The translations under genes and the position numbers were made by a program. A DNA stretch of 64,000 nucleotides from an uncultured Gammaproteobacteria bacterium (GTDB lineage Bacteria > Pseudomonadota > Gammaproteobacteria > Ga0077536): positions 23,677 through 87,676 of the forward strand of contig CALKCL010000005.1 in assembly GCA_938082545.1 (NCBI GenBank), read 5' to 3'. The notes below the pieces were generated by a model. It was not told the DNA's origin and searched no databases. It was given only the letters and a program-made list of their open reading frames with translations. Shown one piece after another: positions 22,731 to 39,269 of the stretch (the first letter of the stretch is position 1; the number at the start of each line of letters is the position of its first letter).

Positions 22731-24992
22731 ATGAAAATTACAGCCTATGCAGATAAAACAAGTGTCGCACCTGATGAAACTATTAACTTCATGGTCAACT
22801 GTAATGCCAAGGAGTTTAAAGCAGACTTTGTAAAGTTAATTTGCGGAGACATGAATCCAGACGGGCCTGGCTATCAAGAAAAAGTCATCCGAACTAAAGC
22901 AACTGGCACCTACCCAGGCAGAAAGCAGACTATTTATGCCGGATCATTTGTTCAAATCGAAGACAACGAAAAATTTAATCAAATTGAAAGCTTTACTTTA
23001 AAGGCGTTCATTTGGCCAACCACCCCAAATAAAGGGCATCAAACCATTATTAGCAACTGGTCAGAAAAAGATCAAAATGGTATGTCACTGGACATTAGTC
23101 CTAACAACAAAGGTCTGATGTTAACAATAGGTTCAGGATCTAATAAAGTTCAGTGTGTCGTCTCTGGGAAACCATTTTTGGAAAGAGAATGGTATTTTGT
23201 GGCAGCGACCTACAATGCAGCCACCAAGCGAATTACTCTGATTCAAGAGCCTTTGCATACGCACGCAAAAACACGCGACCGAAGTATTAAAAATGAAAAA
23301 GCCAAATTCGTCACGCCACCAAAATCAAATCGTCGGATCACTATTGGCGCGCAATTTAAAAGAACAGACAAAGGTCGCACGGTCTGCCAAAACTACTTCA
23401 ATGGTAAAATTGACAGTCCTCTTGTAGCCGCAAGAGCGCTAACAGCCAACCAAGTAGAACAACTCAAAACGGGCTACGATAAAATTAGAATGTCCAATGA
23501 CGTAGTTGCCGCGTGGGACTTCTCAACAGATATCTCTTCATTAAAAATTTCTGACATTTCTGGAAACAATATCCATGGGAAAGTTGTCAATATGCCAGTG
23601 AAGGCTATGACTGGCTGGAACTGGGATGGGGAAGAAATGAACTGGAAGCATGCGCCGAAACAATATGGTGCGATTCACTTTCACGATGATGATGTTCACG
23701 ATGCGGGCTGGGAAATAGATGTTTCATTGAAGGTCCCCAAGAATCTGAAAAGTGGCCTTTACGCTATCCGGCTCCGCGCCGGTAAAGATCTGACAGATGA
23801 AGACTACGTGCCGTTTGCTATTCTTCCCCCAAGAGGAAAGGTGACGGCTGATATCTGCTTCATCTTGCCCACCGCGACCTATATGGCATATGCCAATGAG
23901 CACATGGGTACCGACTCTCCCATAGCACAGCTACTTGGTGGTCGTCTTGTCGAACACGAAAGACAAGATCTCTACCGTAATGAGCACAGAGAATATGGAG
24001 CTAGTTGCTATGACACTCACACCGACGGCTCAGGGGTCTGCTACTCATCGCGACTTCGACCAATATTAAATATGCGACCAAAATATAAAAGCTGGCTGGG
24101 AGGAGAAGGCTCTACCCTATGGCAATTTAACGCAGACACGCATATTACTAACTGGCTTGAAGCTCAAGGCTATAATTACGATGTCATTACTGATGAAGAA
24201 CTTCACCACGATGGAGTCTGCGCCTTAGAAAAATATCGAGTAGTCCTGTCATCCTCTCACCCTGAGTATCATTCCAAAGAAATGTGGGACGCCATGTCGA
24301 CCTATCAAAAGGGCGGAGGTCGCTTAATGTATCTCGGTGCGAACGGATGGTACTGGCGTATTGCCTTTCATCAAGAAGCCGAAGGCGTCTTAGAAGTCCG
24401 GCGAGCAGAAGGGGGCATACGCGGCTGGGAAGCACAAACAGGAGAATATTATCACTCCTTTACCGGAGAATACGGTGGACTATGGCGACGAAATGGGAGA
24501 GCACCTCAAAAAATTGTTGGTACGGGGTTCACGGCACAAGGGTTTGACATCTCGTCTTACTACAAAAGGAACCCTGACAGTTTCAAAAAACCAGTCAAAT
24601 GGATAATGGATGGCGTCAAAGATGACGAGCTCATTGGTAACTTTGGACTTATTGGCGGAGGTGCTGCGGGACTTGAACTCGATCGTGCTGATACAAAACT
24701 AGGGACACATCCTGATGCATATGTACTCGCATCTTCCGAAGATCACACTGATCTATACTTAGTCGTTTGTGAGGAGCTCTTGATTAATTATCCCGGACTA
24801 GGAGGACAAGAGAACCGTCTCGTTAGAGCAGATCTTGTATTCTACGAGACGGATCAAGGTGGAGGCGTGTTTTCAACCAGTTCTATCGCATGGCCTGGGT
24901 CGCTTTCACATAATAATTATGACAACAACGTGTCAAAAATCACCAAAAACGTGCTTGATCGCTTTGTCGCAGAGGGCCCTCTGCTAGACTAG
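22731..24992 (+). CDS. N,N-dimethylformamidase beta (large) subunit-like protein, paralog 1
   Basis: 753 aa. Blocks GDMNPDGPGYQE, AAWDFS, QYGAIHFHDD, TATYMAYANE, SSRLRPILNMRPKY, SSHPEY, GLIGGGAAGLELDR and YDNNVSKITKNVL match my recollection of the DmfA2 family. Confidence 0.75.
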   Translation: MKITAYADKTSVAPDETINFMVNCNAKEFKADFVKLICGDMNPDGPGYQEKVIRTKATGTYPGRKQTIYAGSFVQIEDNEKFNQIESFTLKAFIWPTTPNKGHQTIISNWSEKDQNGMSLDISPNNKGLMLTIGSGSNKVQCVVSGKPFLEREWYFVAATYNAATKRITLIQEPLHTHAKTRDRSIKNEKAKFVTPPKSNRRITIGAQFKRTDKGRTVCQNYFNGKIDSPLVAARALTANQVEQLKTGYDKIRMSNDVVAAWDFSTDISSLKISDISGNNIHGKVVNMPVKAMTGWNWDGEEMNWKHAPKQYGAIHFHDDDVHDAGWEIDVSLKVPKNLKSGLYAIRLRAGKDLTDEDYVPFAILPPRGKVTADICFILPTATYMAYANEHMGTDSPIAQLLGGRLVEHERQDLYRNEHREYGASCYDTHTDGSGVCYSSRLRPILNMRPKYKSWLGGEGSTLWQFNADTHITNWLEAQGYNYDVITDEELHHDGVCALEKYRVVLSSSHPEYHSKEMWDAMSTYQKGGGRLMYLGANGWYWRIAFHQEAEGVLEVRRAEGGIRGWEAQTGEYYHSFTGEYGGLWRRNGRAPQKIVGTGFTAQGFDISSYYKRNPDSFKKPVKWIMDGVKDDELIGNFGLIGGGAAGLELDRADTKLGTHPDAYVLASSEDHTDLYLVVCEELLINYPGLGGQENRLVRADLVFYETDQGGGVFSTSSIAWPGSLSHNNYDNNVSKITKNVLDRFVAEGPLLD

Positions 24993-25035
24993 AGAATCTC
25001 GCAAAGGGCTTTGGAAGTTATGTTTCTTTTTTAGG

Positions 25036-25087
25036 AAAACACTTGTTCTAAAAAAAGTATTGCGGCGCAGGATACCGACACTATAAT
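25036..25087 (+). promoter_or_regulatory. promoter-like region of sRNA-like unit A
   Basis: The 18-nt box AAAACACTTGTTCTAAAA (25036-25053), then TTGCGG (25060-25065), a 16-nt spacer, then TATAAT (25082-25087). Confidence 0.45.
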
Positions 25088-25093
25088 TAGCCT

Positions 25094-25177
25094 TCCTTCT
25101 TGGTAATTCGACCTCCCCTCGAGTCCAAGTTGGAACCTCTCAAAAGAAGCCGGACCCCAGTGGTCCGGCTTCTTTTT
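25094..25177 (+). ncRNA. candidate sRNA A (~85 nt)
   Basis: No ATG inside. The hairpin AUUCGA-CCUCCCC-UCGAGU presents a C-rich loop. It ends in the terminator AGAAGCCGGACC-ccagt-GGTCCGGCTTCT plus TTTT (25145-25177). Confidence 0.45.
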
Positions 25178-25204
25178 CTACTAAAACATTTATTCCAAAA
25201 CAGA

Positions 25205-25256
25205 AAAACACTTGTTCTAAAATAATGTTGCAACGCAATATAATATTAGATAGAGT
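25205..25256 (+). promoter_or_regulatory. promoter-like region of sRNA-like unit B
   Basis: The same 18-nt box (25205-25222), then TTGCAA (25228-25233), a 17-nt spacer, then TAGAGT (25251-25256). The geometry matches unit A. Confidence 0.4.
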
Positions 25257-25262
25257 ATACGG

Positions 25263-25380
25263 GTCTGAGAAAACTTGTCCTCCCCTCAAGTTCTCAGACT
25301 GCCCAATTAGCAATTCGACTCCCCTCGAATCTAGCTGGGATTCTCCCCTAAACCGGACTTTCATAGTCCGGTTTTTTTTT
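25263..25380 (+). ncRNA. candidate sRNA B (~118 nt), a homolog of unit A
   Basis: No ATG inside. Two hairpins present C-rich loops (GUCUGAG..CUUG-UCCUCCCCU-CAAG..CUCAGAC and AUUCGA-CUCCCC-UCGAAU). The terminator is AAACCGGACT-ttcat-AGTCCGGTTT plus a T run (25350-25380). Confidence 0.45.
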
Positions 25381-25440
25381 GCTTCCTCCTAAAGAGACAC
25401 GCTAGAAACGAGTCGTTTTAAAAATCATTGCCTAAACGTA

Positions 25441-25968
25441 TTAACCGGCACCGCTGCGTTTTAACAACAACTCACATACCTCTCGCACTGCACCATGTCC
25501 CCCGACCCGATTACAGACGTAATCAGCATTAGCGACAATTTGAGGCAGTGCATCGTTCGGACATGCTGAGAAACCAACTGCAAGGATGGAAGCTAAATCA
25601 TTAATGTCATCCCCTACAAATGCCACTTCAGACATCTCTATATCCCATTCGTTAACAAGCCCCTCTAAAACCTGCAGTTTATCAGTGACGCCAGGGTAAT
25701 AGCTTTGAATGCTAAGTTTTTCCATGCGCGCGCGAGTAGGGGCATCGTCCTCACCAGTCATCACACAGATTAATACGCCTGTACTCTCCAAAAGCTGCAT
25801 TCCTTTGGCGTCTCGAGTGTCAAACTTTTTTAACTCAATACCTTGAGCTCCGTAATACATCCCACCATCAGTAAGAGTGCCATCAACGTCGACTACCAAA
25901 GCTCGAATCTTGGGTATGAGTCTCGCTGAGGATTGTGTAGCTTTTTTTCTATCAGTCATGATATTCAC
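25441..25968 (-). CDS. KdsC-family HAD-IIIA phosphatase
   Basis: 175 aa with VDVDGTLTDG and VGDDINDL motifs. Confidence 0.7.
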   Translation of the reverse strand: MNIMTDRKKATQSSARLIPKIRALVVDVDGTLTDGGMYYGAQGIELKKFDTRDAKGMQLLESTGVLICVMTGEDDAPTRARMEKLSIQSYYPGVTDKLQVLEGLVNEWDIEMSEVAFVGDDINDLASILAVGFSACPNDALPQIVANADYVCNRVGGHGAVREVCELLLKRSGAG

Positions 25969-26114
25969 GGCTCACTATAAATTAACCGGGCAAGGCTAAA
26001 CGCTCGCACCAACCTACTGCGGTTAACAAGCATTGAATAATATTGTTTTGCAGTCTAGAGTCTATCATTCAAGATAGGTTTTACGAATCATTATAGATAG
26101 CAGGAGGTTTTAGT

Positions 26115-27125
26115 ATGCAAATCATAAAGCGCCGTGAGTCTCAAAAATATGCGTTCGACAATCGGGATGAACCTGCGTTACATGTCATAGAGGGGGAAAT
26201 ATTTCAGGTCGAAACAGACGATGCTCTCTCTGGAATGATTGATGATGACAGCGATGACCCGTTCATCCAAGGATTCGACGGGAAACACTTTTCAGAACTA
26301 GCAAAGGCAACTCCAGGTCTATTCAACCCAGTAGTAGGGCCAATTCACATCAAAGGATGCAAAGCAGGCGATGTCCTGGCAGTACATATCGATTGGGTTG
26401 ATCCGTGGAGATATGGCTTTTCTGGAATTTTACCGCGTATCGGACCGCTTGGAGACTCTCTTCGATATCAAGATTGTGCGGATGGACACGTACAGGTGAT
26501 AGAGCATTTGGCTGGTCCTAGCGGATTTACACGCGATGGCACTGCAAAGTACTCAGAAAATCTCAGCTGGCCCCTGGAACCCTTTATAGGGACTTTGGCT
26601 ACCGCGCCAGAACGCGAGGTGTTCACCTCCGTTCTAGGACAAGGCCCATTCGGTGGAAATATTGACTGTCGAGATATATGTGCGGGACACACAATCTACC
26701 TGAATTCCTACAATGATGGGGGACTCCTTTACATAGGGGATGTTCATGGAGGACAAGGAGATACTGAGTTTACTGGCATCGCTGATGAGACTCGCGCTAC
26801 GGTGCAGTTGTCATGCACCGTGATACCCAATAAGCGGAATCCCTGCGTGAGAATAGAAAAACCGGATAGCATCGTAGCAGTTGGCATCAACTTACCTATG
26901 GAACATGCTGTCTATGATGCAACGGACAATCTAATGCAGTGGCTCGCTGATGAGTATGACGTCCCTCCCAAAGATCTATATATAAGAATGTCATGTGACC
27001 CAGCGTTTAGAATCCGCACTTATCAAATGGTTCGGTTACAAACTATTCAGCACGTTGTAGGTGCAGAATATCCTAAGAGTCGCCTTTTTAACGCCATAGA
27101 TTCTCCGACTAAAGTTAACTCATGA
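26115..27125 (+). CDS. acetamidase/formamidase (FmdA/AmdA) family protein
   Basis: 336 aa with PVVGPIHIKGCKAGDVLAVHI and the GDVHGGQGDTE block. Confidence 0.75.
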   Translation: MQIIKRRESQKYAFDNRDEPALHVIEGEIFQVETDDALSGMIDDDSDDPFIQGFDGKHFSELAKATPGLFNPVVGPIHIKGCKAGDVLAVHIDWVDPWRYGFSGILPRIGPLGDSLRYQDCADGHVQVIEHLAGPSGFTRDGTAKYSENLSWPLEPFIGTLATAPEREVFTSVLGQGPFGGNIDCRDICAGHTIYLNSYNDGGLLYIGDVHGGQGDTEFTGIADETRATVQLSCTVIPNKRNPCVRIEKPDSIVAVGINLPMEHAVYDATDNLMQWLADEYDVPPKDLYIRMSCDPAFRIRTYQMVRLQTIQHVVGAEYPKSRLFNAIDSPTKVNS

Positions 27126-27964
27126 GAATTGGGGTATCTCTACCTATTCGTGAACTCAAGAACGACCTCGCAGCAATAGTAGCGTTTGCACAACTCGCAG
27201 AGGAATTAGGCTTCACTCATTTAAGAATACCAGATCAAATACTGAGGCCGAACAACCAACATCTTCATGAACCATTAATATTAATGGGATACCTCGCCGC
27301 CCTCACCGAGAAGATCGAACTGGCCCCATCTGTAATCGTCTTACCTTTGAGAGAGACAATTCTCCTCGCAAAACAAACTGCGGAAATCGATATATTATCA
27401 GGAGGTCGACTTAGACTTGGCATTGGAGTGGGTGGGAGTGAAGAGGAATATCAGTTCGTGGGAGAGGACTATAAAACTCGTGGAAAGAAATGCGACGAAC
27501 AAATGAAACTACTAAAGGAACTGTGGTGCAAAGAAAGTGTCGCATTTATAGGCGATTGGCATGATATCTCGAAGGCTGGAATTAACCCGCTACCTATACA
27601 ACGGCCTATACCCATGTGGATCGGCGCGAAGGCATCGCCAAGACAGAGTGTCATTAATAGAATTGGTACCTTATCCGATGGATGGTTTGTATTATGCACT
27701 CCAGAAGAATTTCCAAAACTTAACATGGAAATTAATGATATCGCCAAAAAAAGCGGTCGCGACCCCAAAGAAATTGGCACTGAAGCAGGGGTCGCAGTAG
27801 TAGGCCCACGCGAGCATGAATGGCAAAGCCGAGTGAAAGTGTGGCAAAGCAAAGGATTGTCGCACCTATGCATCAGGACCCTAGGAGGAGGGCTTTCTCC
27901 AAAGCAACACCTTGATAAGTTGCGGGAAATTTCAACCGAACTCGAAGAAATAAACGCTTATTAA
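27122..27964 (+). CDS. LLM-class (luciferase-like) flavin/deazaflavin-dependent oxidoreductase
   Basis: 280 aa with GGRLRLGIGVGGSEEEY. It has an ATGA overlap with the formamidase gene. Confidence 0.75.
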   Translation: MRIGVSLPIRELKNDLAAIVAFAQLAEELGFTHLRIPDQILRPNNQHLHEPLILMGYLAALTEKIELAPSVIVLPLRETILLAKQTAEIDILSGGRLRLGIGVGGSEEEYQFVGEDYKTRGKKCDEQMKLLKELWCKESVAFIGDWHDISKAGINPLPIQRPIPMWIGAKASPRQSVINRIGTLSDGWFVLCTPEEFPKLNMEINDIAKKSGRDPKEIGTEAGVAVVGPREHEWQSRVKVWQSKGLSHLCIRTLGGGLSPKQHLDKLREISTELEEINAY

Positions 27965-30038: not shown

Positions 30039-31271
30039 ATGCGATGTGAAGTAGTGGCCATAGGGACAGAGCTCTTGTTGGGCCAGATCATTGACACCAA
30101 CTCCTCTTGGATTGGGGAGCAGCTGACCCAAATTGGAGTTGATTCTCTTTACCAAACAAAAGTTGGCGACAATCACAGTAGAATCATAGCGACTATCAAA
30201 ACTGCTCTTGAAAGAAGTGATGCTGTCATATGCTGCGGTGGCTTAGGTCCTACGCAAGATGACATCACTCGTGAAGCAATTGCTGAGATTATGGATGTCG
30301 AACTAATTTTTGATTCTTCTATAGCTGAAACCATAAAAAAAATGTTTGTCTCTCGTGGGCGCTCAATGCCCGACAATAACTTAAAGCAAGCAGAAATTCC
30401 TGAAGGTGCTTCACCAATTCCTAAACAGCCTGGAACTGCGCCAGGATTAATATGCCCTATAGGTCAGAAAGTTCTTTATGCCGTTCCTGGCGTTCCCTAT
30501 GAAATGCATCAAATGATGAAGACGGCAATTCTTCCCGACCTTATTGCGCGTGCTGGTCATAAGTCTATTATAAAAAGTAGAGTATTAAAAACGTGGGGGT
30601 ACAGTGAAAGCAGGCTAGCCGAGATCCTGGAAAACAGAATATCGGAACTAGACGAAGCAGGGAATCCTACGATTGCTTTTCTAGCTAGCGGTATAGAAGG
30701 GCTAAAAGTCCGGATTACGGCTAAAGGTAATACTCAAGCTGAGGCAGAAGAACTGATAGAAAAAGAAGAAGAAAATGTGAGACAGCTTTTGGGAAGCTCA
30801 ATATTTGCAACTGACAATGAGACTATGGAGTCAACTATCATTAATTTACTCAAAAAATCTGGACTGACCTTGTCATTGGTCGAAGTAACCAGTGGTGGAA
30901 TTGCCAGTGCCCGGCTATCCGCAGCAGATCCGTTTGGTGAGGTGTTCTTCGGCAGCATAGTGCCAAGATCTAGCGGCACGAGAAAACAATTACTTAATGT
31001 GCCCCAGGACATTATTGGGACCTCGGAAGGCGCCAAGCAGCTGGCAATCGCAGCAAGAGCTCTATTCAAAACAGACATTGGTCTATCCACCACTGGGGAG
31101 CATGATGTTTTAGGTGTAACAAAAAGAGGCCAAACGTATCTTGGAATTGCCAACCAAAATGGAGCTCAAGTAGAGCAAGTTAAGTTACCTGGAGACTACG
31201 AAAGGGTTCGTCAATTTAGCGTTATTAGCCTTTTAAATTCGCTGCGCCTAAGTTTGTCTAAAAAAAATTAA
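30039..31271 (+). CDS. cinA: CinA-family protein (MoCF-binding domain plus NMN-deamidase-like domain)
   Basis: 410 aa with EVVAIGTELLLGQIIDTNSSWI and GGLGPTQDDITREA. Confidence 0.85.
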   Translation: MRCEVVAIGTELLLGQIIDTNSSWIGEQLTQIGVDSLYQTKVGDNHSRIIATIKTALERSDAVICCGGLGPTQDDITREAIAEIMDVELIFDSSIAETIKKMFVSRGRSMPDNNLKQAEIPEGASPIPKQPGTAPGLICPIGQKVLYAVPGVPYEMHQMMKTAILPDLIARAGHKSIIKSRVLKTWGYSESRLAEILENRISELDEAGNPTIAFLASGIEGLKVRITAKGNTQAEAEELIEKEEENVRQLLGSSIFATDNETMESTIINLLKKSGLTLSLVEVTSGGIASARLSAADPFGEVFFGSIVPRSSGTRKQLLNVPQDIIGTSEGAKQLAIAARALFKTDIGLSTTGEHDVLGVTKRGQTYLGIANQNGAQVEQVKLPGDYERVRQFSVISLLNSLRLSLSKKN

Positions 31272-31278
31272 AGAGCTT

Positions 31279-31497
31279 ATGGAAATTGAAATAAAATATT
31301 GTGGAATATGAAACTATAAACCTGAAGCGCTCCGTGTGAGGGAACAGCTGATAGGATCGGGATGCAATGTGCAACTAATAGAAGGCACAGGTGGAGTGTT
31401 TGATATCGTGGTCGACAACCAACTGAAGTTTTCCAAAAAAATAAATGGAAACTTTCCATCAGAAAAAAAAATTTCGTCGATAATTTCGGGTTTTTAA
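31279..31497 (+). CDS. SelW/Rdx-family selenoprotein (72 aa) with in-frame TGA (Sec) at 31309..31311
   Basis: MEIEIKYCGI-U-NYKPEALRVREQLIGSGCNVQLIEGTGGVFDIVVDNQLKFSKKINGNFPSEKKISSIISGF. It has a CxxU redox motif plus G.GG.F[DE] and SK...G.FP blocks, as in SelW. There is an AAGAG SD, and it sits 8 nt after cinA. It is absent from the ORF track because of the TGA. Confidence 0.75.
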
Positions 31498-31503
31498 AAT
31501 CAT

Positions 31504-31767
31504 ATGTTGGTAAAAAAACGGATCCTAGAACAACTAGGATCCGAACACACTACTTTTGAAAAAATCAGTAGCACAGTGCTTCTACAAGCCCAAAACCACA
31601 ACATAAATATTTCACTGCAAGAAATCCGGACCGTTATAGAACATCTGATAAAAAATGGAACGATAGACAGCTGCCAGTACCTCGCTGAAGAAAAGTACTA
31701 TGCAAAGACAATTTATGATAAATCTAATATCTACTGGTACTTTTTTAAGCTAAGCTCTAGCGAGTAG
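31504..31767 (+). CDS. hypothetical protein (possibly winged-helix-like)
   Basis: 87 aa. It starts 7 nt after the selW-like stop and is tightly packed in the cinA-amidase operon. Confidence 0.4.
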   Translation: MLVKKRILEQLGSEHTTFEKISSTVLLQAQNHNINISLQEIRTVIEHLIKNGTIDSCQYLAEEKYYAKTIYDKSNIYWYFFKLSSSE

Positions 31768-31797: not shown

Positions 31798-33201
31798 ATG
31801 GGAAACATAGATGATCTATTGCTAGAAACCATACAAACTATAGCACCGATGATCGAATCTAAAACCATCTCTCCGGTCGAGCTGACCGAAGCAATGTTGA
31901 ACAGGATCGAATCGGTCGACAAAAGCATCGGAAGCTATGCGCTTGTTACACCAGATCTTGCCATGGACGAAGCACGACTAGCTGAATCACAAATCATTGC
32001 TGGCAACTATCTTGGTGCACTTCATGGGGTGCCAATCGCACTAAAGGATCTTATTGACGTTGCTAACGTTCCAACTGAGTGCGCTTCGACTATCCTGCGG
32101 GGAAACATTCCACGCACAAATGCCACAGTCGTTGAAAAACTCAAATCAGCAGGAGCGATTACTTTAGGTAAATTAAACCTGACAGAATTTGCTCTGTACG
32201 GCTACCATCCCGAGTTTACCCCACCTGCCAATCCTTGGAACCTTGAGCATTGGTCAGGTGTATCGTCCTCAGGTTCAGGAGCCGCTACCGCTGCATCACT
32301 TTGCTACGCGAGCCTAGGAACCGACACTGGCGGTTCAATTCGTTTCCCTTCCGCCGCATGTGGCGTCGTGGGAATAAAAGCTACTTTTGGAAAAATCAGT
32401 CGACATGGTGTTTTCCCATTATCTGATACGCTGGATCACACAGGACCAATTGCTCGCTGTGTTAAGGATGCTGCGCTTATGCTAAGCATCCTCGAAGGCA
32501 GAGATCCAAAGGACCCGTCGACAAGAACAGACCCTATAAGCGACTATTTCGGCGCAACCTGCAAAGGACTCACCGATTTTAAAATTGGGCTGGATCCTAC
32601 CTATTGCTCAAAAGGATGTGATACGGAAATGTCAGCGGCAACGTTCACCGCAGTCGACCTTCTCAAAAGCGCAGGCGCAACCATAGTTCCGCTCGACGCG
32701 CCTGATCTAGAAAATGCCGCAAGACATTGGTTAAGTATATGCTCAGTTGACGCTCTCATGAGTCACAAAGAGCTTTTCCCAGAGAGAAGAGAGGAGTACG
32801 GGCCAGTCTTCAGGGCACTGTTAGAGCATGGAGAAACTGTGTCTTCAGTTGAGTATGCAGAAGCCACACGTCAACGCCAATATACTACTGCCCTCATCAA
32901 TGACCTATTATCGAAAGCGGACGTCATCGTTTGTCCTGCAATGCCAACGATTGCTGGACCTCAATCTGATTACCCCCCTCAGCAAGTCGCCGCCGTCGAA
33001 GACATTGGACCATTAGTGAAATTCGCGGCACCAACAAATTTTTCTGGCCATCCAAGTATCACGATACCTAATGGATTTAGCGCAAGTGGAATGCCTACTG
33101 GGATGCAGTTTATTGGTCGACATGGAGATGAGGCGTCCATCATTCGAGCGGCTGCCGCCTACGAGGAACTGACGGATTGGCAAAAACACAAACCCTTATA
33201 G
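31798..33201 (+). CDS. amidase-signature (GatA-like) amidase
   Basis: 467 aa with GVSSSGSGAATAA and GTDTGGSIRFPSAACGVVGIKATFG. Confidence 0.9.
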   Translation: MGNIDDLLLETIQTIAPMIESKTISPVELTEAMLNRIESVDKSIGSYALVTPDLAMDEARLAESQIIAGNYLGALHGVPIALKDLIDVANVPTECASTILRGNIPRTNATVVEKLKSAGAITLGKLNLTEFALYGYHPEFTPPANPWNLEHWSGVSSSGSGAATAASLCYASLGTDTGGSIRFPSAACGVVGIKATFGKISRHGVFPLSDTLDHTGPIARCVKDAALMLSILEGRDPKDPSTRTDPISDYFGATCKGLTDFKIGLDPTYCSKGCDTEMSAATFTAVDLLKSAGATIVPLDAPDLENAARHWLSICSVDALMSHKELFPERREEYGPVFRALLEHGETVSSVEYAEATRQRQYTTALINDLLSKADVIVCPAMPTIAGPQSDYPPQQVAAVEDIGPLVKFAAPTNFSGHPSITIPNGFSASGMPTGMQFIGRHGDEASIIRAAAAYEELTDWQKHKPL

Positions 33202-36423: not shown

Positions 36424-36846
36424 ATGCCGATACCAAAAAAACCCACCGCACTGCAGCAAAACTACGCCTTAATGGCAGTAGATGACTATGACATGAGAAT
36501 GTATGTGGTCGATCACTTGAAAGATAAAGACAAAAGAAATGCGCTTATAGCAGAGCATGCGAAATTCCCTAGAGGAGGAGCGACTCAACCGGGAAGCCCC
36601 CCTCCACTCCAGAGCCCAACGTTAAAGAGACTAGTAGATAAGTTACGAATGGTGCCTCAAACCGGGAAACACACCATCGTAGAAACAATTCCATGGAAGG
36701 AATATGCCATCGGCATCTTACCTGGCGCCCGCGGGAAACCAGTAAAAATAACTAGCGAAAAATATAACTCTAGAGATGATGCCAACCACGCTATTTTTTG
36801 TAAACGATTAAAGGCTTTGTGCGCTCATTACGACATCCGCATGTAG
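36424..36846 (+). CDS. small protein, candidate alpha-like partner of the DMFase-like enzyme (locus 2)
   Basis: 140 aa (~15-16 kDa). The C-terminal ~70 aa are homologous to ORF 22349..22645. It lies immediately upstream of the large subunit gene. Confidence 0.55.
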   Translation: MPIPKKPTALQQNYALMAVDDYDMRMYVVDHLKDKDKRNALIAEHAKFPRGGATQPGSPPPLQSPTLKRLVDKLRMVPQTGKHTIVETIPWKEYAIGILPGARGKPVKITSEKYNSRDDANHAIFCKRLKALCAHYDIRM

Positions 36847-36860
36847 TTCAGAGGAAAACC

Positions 36861-39269
36861 ATGAAACAAGACTCAATGTTACGCATAACCGGCTATTCCG
36901 ATAAATGCTCAGTTACACCAGGAGATGAGATCACATTTTATGTTCATAGTGAATTTGGTGAGTCGTACCAATCTGATATCGTAAGACTTATCAACGGAGA
37001 CACCAATCCTGAAGGCCCTGGATTCAAGGAAAAACTATTCCGAACCAGTGTTAATGCAAAGTACAAAGGTGAGAACCAGCCTTTAATGGCAGGAAGTTAC
37101 CTGCTTGCCCCACAAAGTGATCATTTTGACCTAGAAAGCCTAACGCTGTGTGCCTATATTTACCCCACAACTCCAACGGTCGATACAGAAGGAGTTGCGG
37201 TCGGAGAACAAGCACTGCTCTCGAAATGGGATGCAGATAAGAAAAAAGGGTACGGATTATTCATCAATAAAGAAGGTGAGCTTGAATTTCGTTTAGGGAA
37301 TGGCAGAGGAAAAGTAGAAAGCTTTAGCACCCGTAAACCCATGATGAGAAAAATTTGGTACAAAGTCATGGTCAGTTTCGATGCGTCTACTGGAAAAGGG
37401 CTCATCTGCCAGATCCCTTATCTGACTGCGACTAATGGCGGTCATGGACCAAGTATGCTCCATCCCCGCTCTGACACGGAAGCTGAACGTAAATTTACCG
37501 CTAAAAACGGCGCAGCCAAAACACATGAAAGCCCCTTCACGATGGCCGCTAGCTGCAAGTCTTCGGAATGTGATCGGCAGGTGTTTGACGGACATTACAA
37601 CCATCTGGAACAGCCTTGGGATATCCCCGAGCATACTGAAAAATACAATGGGAAAATCGATAGACCACGAGTCGCAAATCGCGCGCTAAATAGAGCTGAA
37701 ATAGAGCTGATTCTAGGTGCACCTAGAATGGAGGCCATACCAACAGAACTAAGGTCTTCTATCGTAGCTGCTTGGGATTTTAGCGCTAATATTTCAGAAA
37801 ATGCTGCGTCCACGCACATTGTAGATGCGGGTCCCCATCGACTACATGCTGTTGGAATAAATCTCCCAGTCCGGGGAACACCAGGTCATAACTGGTCCTC
37901 CCACTTCATGAGCTTCATCCATGGGCCTCAAGAGTACGGCGCAATACATTTTCACGATGAAACTGTGGATGATGCGCGTTGGAAGCCAACATTTACGCTA
38001 AAAATCCCCGAACGCATGGTCAGTGGAGTCTATGCTGCTCGCCTCAGGGTCAAAGGGAAATCAACTCCAGATCATGAAGACTATATCCCATTTTTCGTAC
38101 GTCCACCTAAGGGCACAACGACTGCGAAAATTGCTCTAGTCATGCCGACTCACAGTTACATGGCCTACGCGAACGATAACTTAAGCGTTAACTCCGTAGT
38201 AGCACAATTATTAACAGGACAGGTGCCACTCCTGCAACCAAGCGACTTATTACTTAATCAAGAGCGCGGATACGGACTAGGGACGTATGCGTCCTATCGA
38301 GACGGCTGGGGAGTCAACGTGTCTTCTCGTCTGCGTCCGATCCTCAACATGAGGCCTAAGTATCTGCATGTGCTCTCGCCATCGCTTTGGCAGTTCAACG
38401 CAGATTTACATCTCGTTGACTGGTTGCATGAACTTAAGTATGACGTAGATATTATTACTGACGAAGACGTGCAAAGAGAAGGTGTGACGCTTCTAAACCA
38501 ATATCCCATAGTCTTAACAGGGCACCATCCGGAGTATGTCTCTGAAGAGGCAATGGACGCCTATCATGACTACCAGCTGCAAGGCGGTCGTTTTCTATAT
38601 CTGGCAGCTAATGGCTTCTATTGGATCACTGTGCCGCACCCCGAAAATCCCAACATCATCGAGGTAAGAAAAGGGGATAACGGGACTCGAGCATGGACTA
38701 TTAACCCTGGCGAATACTGTAATGCCTTCGATGGAAAGCATGGCGGCTTATGGCGAGTCCGAGGACGAGCTATGAGCAAGCTACTCGGCGTCACTTTCAC
38801 TTCTTTTGGCCTCACATATTCTTCCTACTATCGCCGCGCGCCGGATAGCAATCTGCCTGAGTGCCAATGGATAATGAAAGGCTTAAGTGCTGACGAGCCT
38901 ATTGGAAACTTTGGCTTAGTAGGTGGAGGTGCTGCAGGTCTTGAACTCGATCGATACGATCTAGAACTGGGCACGCCTCACAGAGCGTATCTATTAGCTC
39001 ACTCTGAGGGGCATAACGATATCTTTGTATCAGTAACTGAAGAATCGACGTTTAATGCCAGAGGCTATACCCAAGGAGGAACGGGCGACAACAATCCTTG
39101 GACACGCGCAGATATCGTCTACTATAAGACACCGAACGACGGGGCAGTTTTTTCTGTCGGTTCGATGTCATGGTGTGGCTCATTGCAGCACAATGATTAC
39201 GACAACAATGTCTCTCAAATCATGCAAAATGTTCTCAATGGTTTTCTAAAACCAGGCACATTGCCATGA
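36861..39269 (+). CDS. N,N-dimethylformamidase beta (large) subunit-like protein, paralog 2
   Basis: ~802 aa. I prefer ATG 36861 (GAGGA SD; MKQDSMLRITGYSDK aligns with MKITAYADK of paralog 1). It shares the blocks AAWDFS, QYGAIHFHDE, HSYMAYAND, SSRLRPILNMRPKY, GHHPEY, GLVGGGAAGLELDR and YDNNVSQIMQNVL. Confidence 0.75.
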   Translation: MKQDSMLRITGYSDKCSVTPGDEITFYVHSEFGESYQSDIVRLINGDTNPEGPGFKEKLFRTSVNAKYKGENQPLMAGSYLLAPQSDHFDLESLTLCAYIYPTTPTVDTEGVAVGEQALLSKWDADKKKGYGLFINKEGELEFRLGNGRGKVESFSTRKPMMRKIWYKVMVSFDASTGKGLICQIPYLTATNGGHGPSMLHPRSDTEAERKFTAKNGAAKTHESPFTMAASCKSSECDRQVFDGHYNHLEQPWDIPEHTEKYNGKIDRPRVANRALNRAEIELILGAPRMEAIPTELRSSIVAAWDFSANISENAASTHIVDAGPHRLHAVGINLPVRGTPGHNWSSHFMSFIHGPQEYGAIHFHDETVDDARWKPTFTLKIPERMVSGVYAARLRVKGKSTPDHEDYIPFFVRPPKGTTTAKIALVMPTHSYMAYANDNLSVNSVVAQLLTGQVPLLQPSDLLLNQERGYGLGTYASYRDGWGVNVSSRLRPILNMRPKYLHVLSPSLWQFNADLHLVDWLHELKYDVDIITDEDVQREGVTLLNQYPIVLTGHHPEYVSEEAMDAYHDYQLQGGRFLYLAANGFYWITVPHPENPNIIEVRKGDNGTRAWTINPGEYCNAFDGKHGGLWRVRGRAMSKLLGVTFTSFGLTYSSYYRRAPDSNLPECQWIMKGLSADEPIGNFGLVGGGAAGLELDRYDLELGTPHRAYLLAHSEGHNDIFVSVTEESTFNARGYTQGGTGDNNPWTRADIVYYKTPNDGAVFSVGSMSWCGSLQHNDYDNNVSQIMQNVLNGFLKPGTLP

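Follow-up and report, generated by a model that had tools for sequence, protein, structure and literature searches.

The window, the whole stretch of 64,000 nt that was analysed here, carries on its plus strand a short reading frame between cinA and a small conserved ORF (orf87). The frame runs from ATG 31279 through TGT (Cys) at 31300-31302 and an in-frame TGA at 31309-31311 to TAA at 31495-31497, with 61 open codons between the TGA and the TAA. Its translation is MEIEIKYCGI, an in-frame stop, NYKPEALRVREQLIGSGCNVQLIEGTGGVFDIVVDNQLKFSKKINGNFPSEKKISSIISGF and the terminal stop. On re-reading, frame and translation matched the original prediction exactly, and the cinA stop at 31271 and the start of the 87-aa ORF at 31504 were likewise correct. 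The gaps are 7 nt between cinA and the short gene (here selW) and 6 nt between selW and orf87. In the ORF listing made under table 11, the sole plus-strand ORF of the selW region is a 53-aa fragment starting at GTG (31336-31497), and two antisense ORFs of 60 aa (31277-31459) and 40 aa (31314-31436) lie over it. The features of the locus are as follows.

30039-31271, plus strand: cinA, CinA-family NMN deamidase-related protein (NCBIfam TIGR00200, 283 bits)
31271-31275, plus strand: purine-rich, Shine-Dalgarno-like AAGAG, 3 nt 5' of ATG 31279 and overlapping the cinA stop
31279-31497, plus strand: selW, SelW-like (Rdx family) gene, very probably encoding a selenoprotein; 72 codons plus TAA, codon 11 being UGA (Sec)
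31300-31311, plus strand: CxxU redox motif, TGT (Cys8) GGA ATA TGA (Sec11)
31309-31311, plus strand: UGA assigned to Sec, kept in 15 closely related contigs and 17 GTDB species genomes
31326-31349, plus strand: originally proposed hairpin register AGC..UCC[GUGUGAG]GGA..GCU; sequence present, pairing not conserved
31328-31342, plus strand: upper hairpin of a bacterial SECIS in the family-wide register, from RNAalifold consensus and covariation
31504-31767, plus strand: orf87, conserved small protein, found by tblastn in distant loci; winged-helix-like prediction

Translated with Cys in place of the UGA, the gene product of 72 aa matched the Pfam Rdx profile (PF10262) with an E-value of 5.1e-14 and a score of 52.7 bits (cut-off 22.6), covering profile positions 1-72 of 74. 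The 53-aa downstream part alone also lies above threshold, with 34.1 bits over profile positions 32-72; the difference between the two scores indicates that the ten codons preceding the UGA contribute real family signal. NCBIfam TIGR02174 (CXXU_selWTH) was matched with 43.5 bits, above its cut-off of 34.2, and the top NCBIfam model was NF041051, 'SelT/SelW/SelH family (seleno)protein', at 69.1 bits and thus below the 88-bit equivalog cut-off. Judged by the PF10262 and TIGR02174 matches, the product is a member of the Rdx/SelW-like family, the assignment that had been made from the sequence motifs. A phmmer search of PDB sequences returned eight solved Rdx proteins, the best being 2fa8 (E 1.7e-6), with MIEN1 (2ljk, E 1.1e-5), mouse SelW (2npb, E 3.9e-4) and five more; these matches suggest a thioredoxin-like fold. 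When aligned across the TGA, YCGI-UGA-NY of the window corresponds to YCTQCNW of 2fa8 and YCEPCGF of 2ljk, so that the UGA stands opposite the second Cys of CxxC. The Cys of 18 Cys-form database representatives (see below) aligns with the UGA in the same way.

We located orthologs by using CinA as an anchor in a species-representative genome collection, followed by tblastn and profile searches of all loci. By CinA identity, two marine MAGs come closest: 'Proteobacteria bacterium UBA4457' (99%), which NCBI taxonomy lists only as 'unclassified Pseudomonadota', and SI072_bin20 (97%). The next MAGs share 58-72% CinA identity, and most of these are labelled Gammaproteobacteria, with a few labelled only Pseudomonadota or 'uncultured bacterium'. 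An Rdx gene was found in 17 species-level genomes, mostly from uncultured marine Gammaproteobacteria. The TGA occupies the same position in all 17, and none of the Rdx genes found by this cinA-based search (tblastn and profile) carries the Cys form there. Identity of the Rdx protein to that of the window is only 38-59% in 15 of these genomes, and the ortholog consensus reads M-x-I-E-I-E-Y-C-x-x-U-N-Y-E-P-x-A-L-R-A-R. In the cinA loci from Acidimicrobiia and Alphaproteobacteria, the profile search found no nearby Rdx gene in either Cys or Sec form. Closer to the window, 15 metagenome contigs of about 97% identity (L001-L015) all keep the ATG...TGA segment intact, the sole change upstream of the TGA being a synonymous TGT to TGC. 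The TGA at the codon-11 position is therefore kept in 32 of 32 related loci (15 contigs and 17 species-level genomes), whereas the case against Sec decoding named in the original prediction would have called for decayed or frameshifted orthologs. One further contig of 1.5 kb (L016, CAWVTC010000229.1) is 99% identical to the cinA-selW junction of the window and has been assigned to a MAG that carries the label 'uncultured Dehalococcoidia bacterium'. As all remaining close matches are Pseudomonadota MAGs, this contig is probably mis-binned.

A comparison of codon positions across the orthologs addresses the DNA on either side of the TGA. Over the eight codons 5' of it, pairwise differences amount to 0.24, 0.20 and 0.51 at codon positions 1, 2 and 3, while the 30 nt of intergenic DNA just before those codons show a flat distribution (0.72, 0.72 and 0.75). 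Downstream of the TGA the corresponding values are 0.19, 0.18 and 0.35. Every ortholog has an ATG 8-10 codons 5' of the TGA, in most cases with a GGAG/GAGG-type motif in front of this ATG. By this substitution pattern, the codons upstream of the UGA evolve as coding sequence. The third-position bias, together with the ATG in every ortholog, rules out both a pseudogene and an untranslated leader.

The RNA that follows the UGA was analysed by covariation in a gapless alignment of 19 distinct sequences extending 54 nt from the UGA; the 15 contigs of about 97% identity were too similar for this purpose. The RNAalifold consensus is a single hairpin that pairs columns 20-24 with columns 30-34 around a loop C-G-U/G-G-Y. 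Standard pairs make up 94.7% in these columns, and shifting the 3' partners by 1-3 columns lowers this share to 34-61%. All five pairs are formed in 15 of the 19 sequences. Three of the five pairs show compensatory changes (CG/UA, CG/AU/GU and UA/GC), and the covariation score was reached by none of 500 shuffles. In one compensatory case, GCC to GCU (Ala) is accompanied by AGG to AGA (Arg), both changes being synonymous; in another, CUC (Leu) becomes CGC (Arg) together with a synonymous AGG to CGG. Codon usage reflects the same pairing: in GC-rich genomes AGR accounts for 18 of 463 Arg codons of the adjacent cinA, as against 10 of 12 at the position on the 3' arm, and the two CGG exceptions at this Arg are exactly the sequences in which the partner has changed from U to G.

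In the window, the hairpin spans 31328-31342 and contains the pairs C31328-G31342, C31330-G31340, U31331-A31339 and C31332-G31338; a G31329.G31341 mismatch leaves this haplotype with four of the five pairs. The loop CGUGU lies at 31333-31337 and has G-U at its positions 2-3 (G31334-U31335), with the stem beginning 16 nt and the apical loop 21 nt after the UGA. The bSECIS model describes a loop of 3-9 nt, an upper stem of 4-16 bp, a spacing of 16-37 nt from UGA to loop, a G in the first two loop positions (usually G[G|U]) and a minimum free energy of -7.5 kcal/mol or lower (PMC13188914). The geometry of the hairpin falls within this description, with a 5-nt loop, a 5-bp stem in the family consensus, 21-nt spacing and G-U at loop positions 2-3. 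For the hairpin alone, the folding energy is -5.3 to -9.1 kcal/mol in distant orthologs and -3.1 kcal/mol in the window. Constrained folds of the 54 nt give -9.7 to -22.1 kcal/mol for orthologs and -9.3 kcal/mol for the window; whether the limit of -7.5 kcal/mol is reached depends on the amount of flanking pairing that one includes. A conserved lower stem at alignment columns 13-16/36-39 is unsupported (51% paired), and no bulged U was detected in the hairpin. Single-sequence folds were no better than those of shuffled sequences (z -0.16 for 31309-31375 and +0.29 for 31270-31420), in line with the original view that the proposed stem-loop folds weakly. An Rfam search gave nothing at the gathering threshold and nothing at E <= 10 on the gene region; no curated family thus matches the bacterial SECIS of this gene. 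The 19-sequence alignment itself is a clear example, backed by covariation, of how a minimal SECIS of bacterial type overlies coding sequence, and could be used for the training of SECIS detectors.

A SECIS-like stem-loop had originally been proposed at 31326-31349. Its location and its sequence as written hold, but its pairing register does not: as a conserved SECIS it was rejected, having no compensatory pairs and scoring no better than shuffles. The proposed register may form in the window haplotype, where it reaches -6.0 kcal/mol compared with -3.1 kcal/mol for the family register, while in the sister haplotype L006 the values are -2.5 and -7.5 kcal/mol, respectively. Both registers place G31334-U31335 in the loop. 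The two natural haplotypes, that of the window and that of L006-L014, are distinguished by two synonymous changes that are linked: column 21 holds G in the window and C in L006-L014, and column 40 holds C and U, respectively. The two columns correspond to 31329 and 31348 in the window, and each haplotype favours a different hairpin register.

We consider 31279-31497 to be a genuine Sec-encoding SelW-like gene, with a probability of about 0.92. The analysis shows that the product belongs to the family, that the UGA is conserved and flanked on either side by codons under coding selection, and that the hairpin covaries; the earlier reading of the UGA as Sec is borne out by its conservation, by its alignment with the Cys of homologs and by the covariation. 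The gene would encode a 72-residue SelW-like protein of thioredoxin-like fold with a Cys8-x-x-Sec11 redox centre. Translation would start at ATG 31279 and is, from the arrangement of the two genes, likely coupled to that of the upstream cinA. By analogy with the established bacterial mechanism, the hairpin at 31328-31342 would recruit SelB carrying Sec-tRNA(Sec) to the UGA at 31309, so that selenocysteine is inserted instead of termination taking place; dependence on SelB and tRNA-Sec and the incorporation of selenium are both implied by this scheme. Motif and family suggest that the product most likely works as a small oxidoreductase of the thiol/selenol type, alternating between a selenenylsulfide and a reduced selenol/thiol form.

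Such decoding calls for a Sec machinery, for which the available loci were searched. Neither the window nor any of 22 related loci yielded a tRNA-Sec in ARAGORN, and tblastn with E. coli SelA, SelB and SelD as queries gave no match in 1.55 Mb (the window and 95 loci). Pfam analysis of 10 size-appropriate ORFs of the window found no SelA, SelB or SelD; the ORFs were instead assigned to argininosuccinate lyase, RimK, CoA transferase, RF-1, HemA and others. These results, together with the marginal stability of the window's own hairpin (-3.1 kcal/mol), would fit a SECIS-independent, leaky read-through of the UGA by a near-cognate tRNA (Trp or Cys), yielding a CxxW or CxxC protein with no involvement of Sec machinery. 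However, across 17 species the position holds only UGA and never Cys, and the hairpin that follows it covaries, carries a SelB-type G-U loop and has canonical spacing, a combination characteristic of Sec decoding. In marine samples, moreover, the Sec form of SelW-like proteins far outnumbers the Cys form, with 427 against 56 in GOS (PMC2398784). We regard leaky read-through as quite unlikely on this evidence. For Sec decoding, we infer that the organism possesses the corresponding machinery. The finding of selW marks this uncultured marine gammaproteobacterial lineage as almost certainly Sec-decoding, and more UGA-containing genes are to be expected in its genome.

A second alternative is that the true gene is the 53-aa ORF starting at GTG 31336, with the ten upstream codons serving as a leader and the hairpin controlling, for example, initiation at the GTG. 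The GTG does sit in the hairpin loop, and the fragment passes the Pfam Rdx threshold by itself. Such a protein would nevertheless be devoid of strand beta-1 and of the CxxC/CxxU centre, which define the Rdx family, while the upstream codons show third-position bias and follow a conserved ATG with Shine-Dalgarno-like motifs. Furthermore, the GTG is not conserved: of the 19 sequences in the alignment, 11 have GCG at columns 28-30. An origin of the protein at this GTG is accordingly very improbable, and the 72-codon Sec-encoding gene is preferred.

Some database entries appear to favour a third possibility, namely that all UGA codons of this organism are reassigned to Trp or Gly (table 4 or 25), giving W or G at the position in question. 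A HMMER scan of 1.84 billion representatives with P0001 as query gave 123 relatives, or 127 sequences when P0001-P0004 are included. Cys is present at position 8 in 89 of the 127, and position 11 holds W in 72 and C in 18, the sequence being N-terminally truncated in 35 and carrying another residue in 2. ENA gene calls on short contigs translate the TGA as W under table 4. The W of P0001 stems from contigs of less than 800 bp that have TGA in their DNA, and no such locus yields the query under table 11; it is a gene-calling artefact of the table 4 reading. The 72 W-containing Rdx representatives as a group look like the same database artefact, the correspondence of W with TGA being confirmed at the DNA level for P0001 only. 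Within the window, TGA terminates 12 of the 47 ORFs of at least 200 aa; the long ORFs give full-length domain matches, and a scan of the whole window for genes with in-frame TGA found none inside the long genes and no further candidates, only gene junctions and noise frames. Four selW orthologs (L030, L018, L024 and L031) end at a second UGA, indicating that decoding of UGA depends on its context. In these four, UGA stands for Sec (codon 9 or 11) and for stop within one gene of about 70 codons, a compact natural case of context-dependent decoding. Wholesale reassignment is hence hardly conceivable, and so is a pseudogene, a Cys-type Rdx gene whose TGT/TGC codon has become TGA through a nonsense mutation, or a TGA that stems from a sequencing or assembly error: a lone in-frame stop at codon 11, which gene callers treat as such, resembles a nonsense mutation in one sequence, but not in 15 independent contigs and 17 species-level genomes devoid of Cys forms, with coding selection 5' and a covarying hairpin 3' of the TGA, and an assembly artefact common to different assemblers and samples is implausible.

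The consequences for annotation are practical. On longer contigs, public gene calls cut selW down to 53 aa, and both CxxW and truncated forms populate protein-database searches for the Rdx family of this gene. The gene had been described as invisible to standard callers. This does not hold entirely, since the 53-aa fragment goes by the name 'predicted Rdx family selenoprotein' at JGI, gene calls in ENA include the W-containing form and NCBIfam has '(seleno)protein' models. The annotation should be corrected to a 72-aa CxxU selenoprotein, which is neither the 53-aa fragment nor the table 4 'W' protein.

The surroundings of selW are conserved. In 16 of the 17 genomes, the gene directly downstream of cinA is the Rdx gene, and the Pfam domains MoCF_biosynth, CinA_KH and CinA were found in the syntenic contigs. 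In L017, L018, L020, L024, L027, L030 and L033, the Rdx gene is followed by orf87 with 34-47% identity (tblastn), these distant orf87-bearing MAGs being mostly Gammaproteobacteria. A C-terminal block of orf87, QYLAEEKYYA-T-YDKSNIYWYFFKL, is nearly invariant, and the sequence comparison indicates that orf87 is a real conserved gene; it matches no Pfam or NCBIfam family. The AF2 model (pLDDT 70.7) has the topology H-H-H-E-E, and its Foldseek neighbours are Fur/PadR/YodB/PerR DNA-binding domains, weak matches with TM scores of 0.55-0.67 and E about 1e-2, in keeping with a predicted winged-helix-like fold. No promoter-like or terminator-like site was detected on the plus strand between cinA, selW and orf87. 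The three genes form what may be viewed as a tightly packed conserved unit. Should the three genes be functionally linked, the selenoprotein could serve a CinA-linked NAD-salvage or damage response, either as its redox partner or as its sensor, and orf87 could be a small component that binds DNA or acts as an adaptor; we put this forward as a speculative proposal that is rather unlikely to be correct. A literature search for a link between cinA and SelW found nothing relevant. If true, the proposal would be the first clue from genomes to what bacterial SelW-like proteins do.

Two other observations were made in the vicinity. A perfect 10-bp inverted repeat, CGGATCCTAG-n5-CTAGGATCCG, lies at 31519-31543 within orf87 codons 6-13, contains two BamHI sites and was flagged as terminator-like on the minus strand. 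The repeat is confined to the low-GC clade, broken in L006 and L012 and absent from distant orthologs. In the window the repeat is lengthened by a TGG to CGG change that turns the otherwise conserved Trp6 of orf87 into Arg, and it is probably incidental. Genes for amide and C1-nitrogen catabolism are abundant near selW, at 22731-27964 and 36424-39269 and in the syntenic contig L006. They include two N,N-dimethylformamidase beta-like genes (DMFA2_C) with the DMF_alpha small subunit and a formamidase/acetamidase (FmdA_AmdA); a luciferase-like monooxygenase and an amidase-signature enzyme (31798-33201) are also present. This gene content suggests a methylated-amide degradation island.

The closest known systems are the marine SelW-like selenoproteins described by Zhang, Gladyshev and co-workers from the Sargasso Sea (PMC1088965), from GOS (PMC2398784) and in a later marine survey (PMC9402790). 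SelW-like CxxU proteins have been recognised since 2005 as the commonest marine prokaryotic selenoprotein family, a position reported in these studies, and make up 11.3% of selenoprotein genes in the later survey (PMC9402790). The role described for them is a probable redox function only. The window gene belongs to the same Pfam family (given there as pfam05169, now within PF10262 Rdx) and has the same CxxU right after the first strand, a similar size (about 70-80 aa), a marine origin and likewise an in-ORF SECIS of bacterial type just after the UGA; nothing essential differs. The original statement that the family is not new and is known from marine metagenomes agrees with these reports.

Mammalian SelW (PDB 2npb, Sec13Cys) and MIEN1/C17orf37 (2ljk) are Rdx proteins with CxxU or CxxC at the same position, and share the G-G-x-F-E and SK-x-x-G-x-FP motifs with the window protein at low sequence identity. 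Eukaryotic SelW relies on a SECIS in the 3'-UTR with a kink-turn core and on SBP2/eEFSec, whereas the window gene has a small in-ORF hairpin, as in bacteria. The bacterial Cys-type Rdx proteins (Agrobacterium Atu0228, 2fa8; 2ojl, 2oka, 2obk, 2p0g and 3dex) share family and, by sequence, fold, and their CxxC aligns with CxxU. They differ in having Cys for Sec, a length of about 100-110 aa and an insertion after helix 1, the window protein being minimal at 72 aa. With the E. coli fdhF/fdnG SECIS and the bSECIS consensus, the window hairpin has in common an in-ORF stem-loop after the UGA and a small apical loop with G then U. It has no sequence similarity to the fdhF element, neither a bulged U nor a conserved lower stem was detected, and in the window haplotype the stem contains a G.G mismatch. 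The selW gene is thus a member of a well-known family and leaves the knowledge of selenoproteins unchanged. What is new is modest: the placement of the gene in a clade of uncultured marine Gammaproteobacteria, a SECIS tested by covariation and the conserved cinA-selW-orf87 order.
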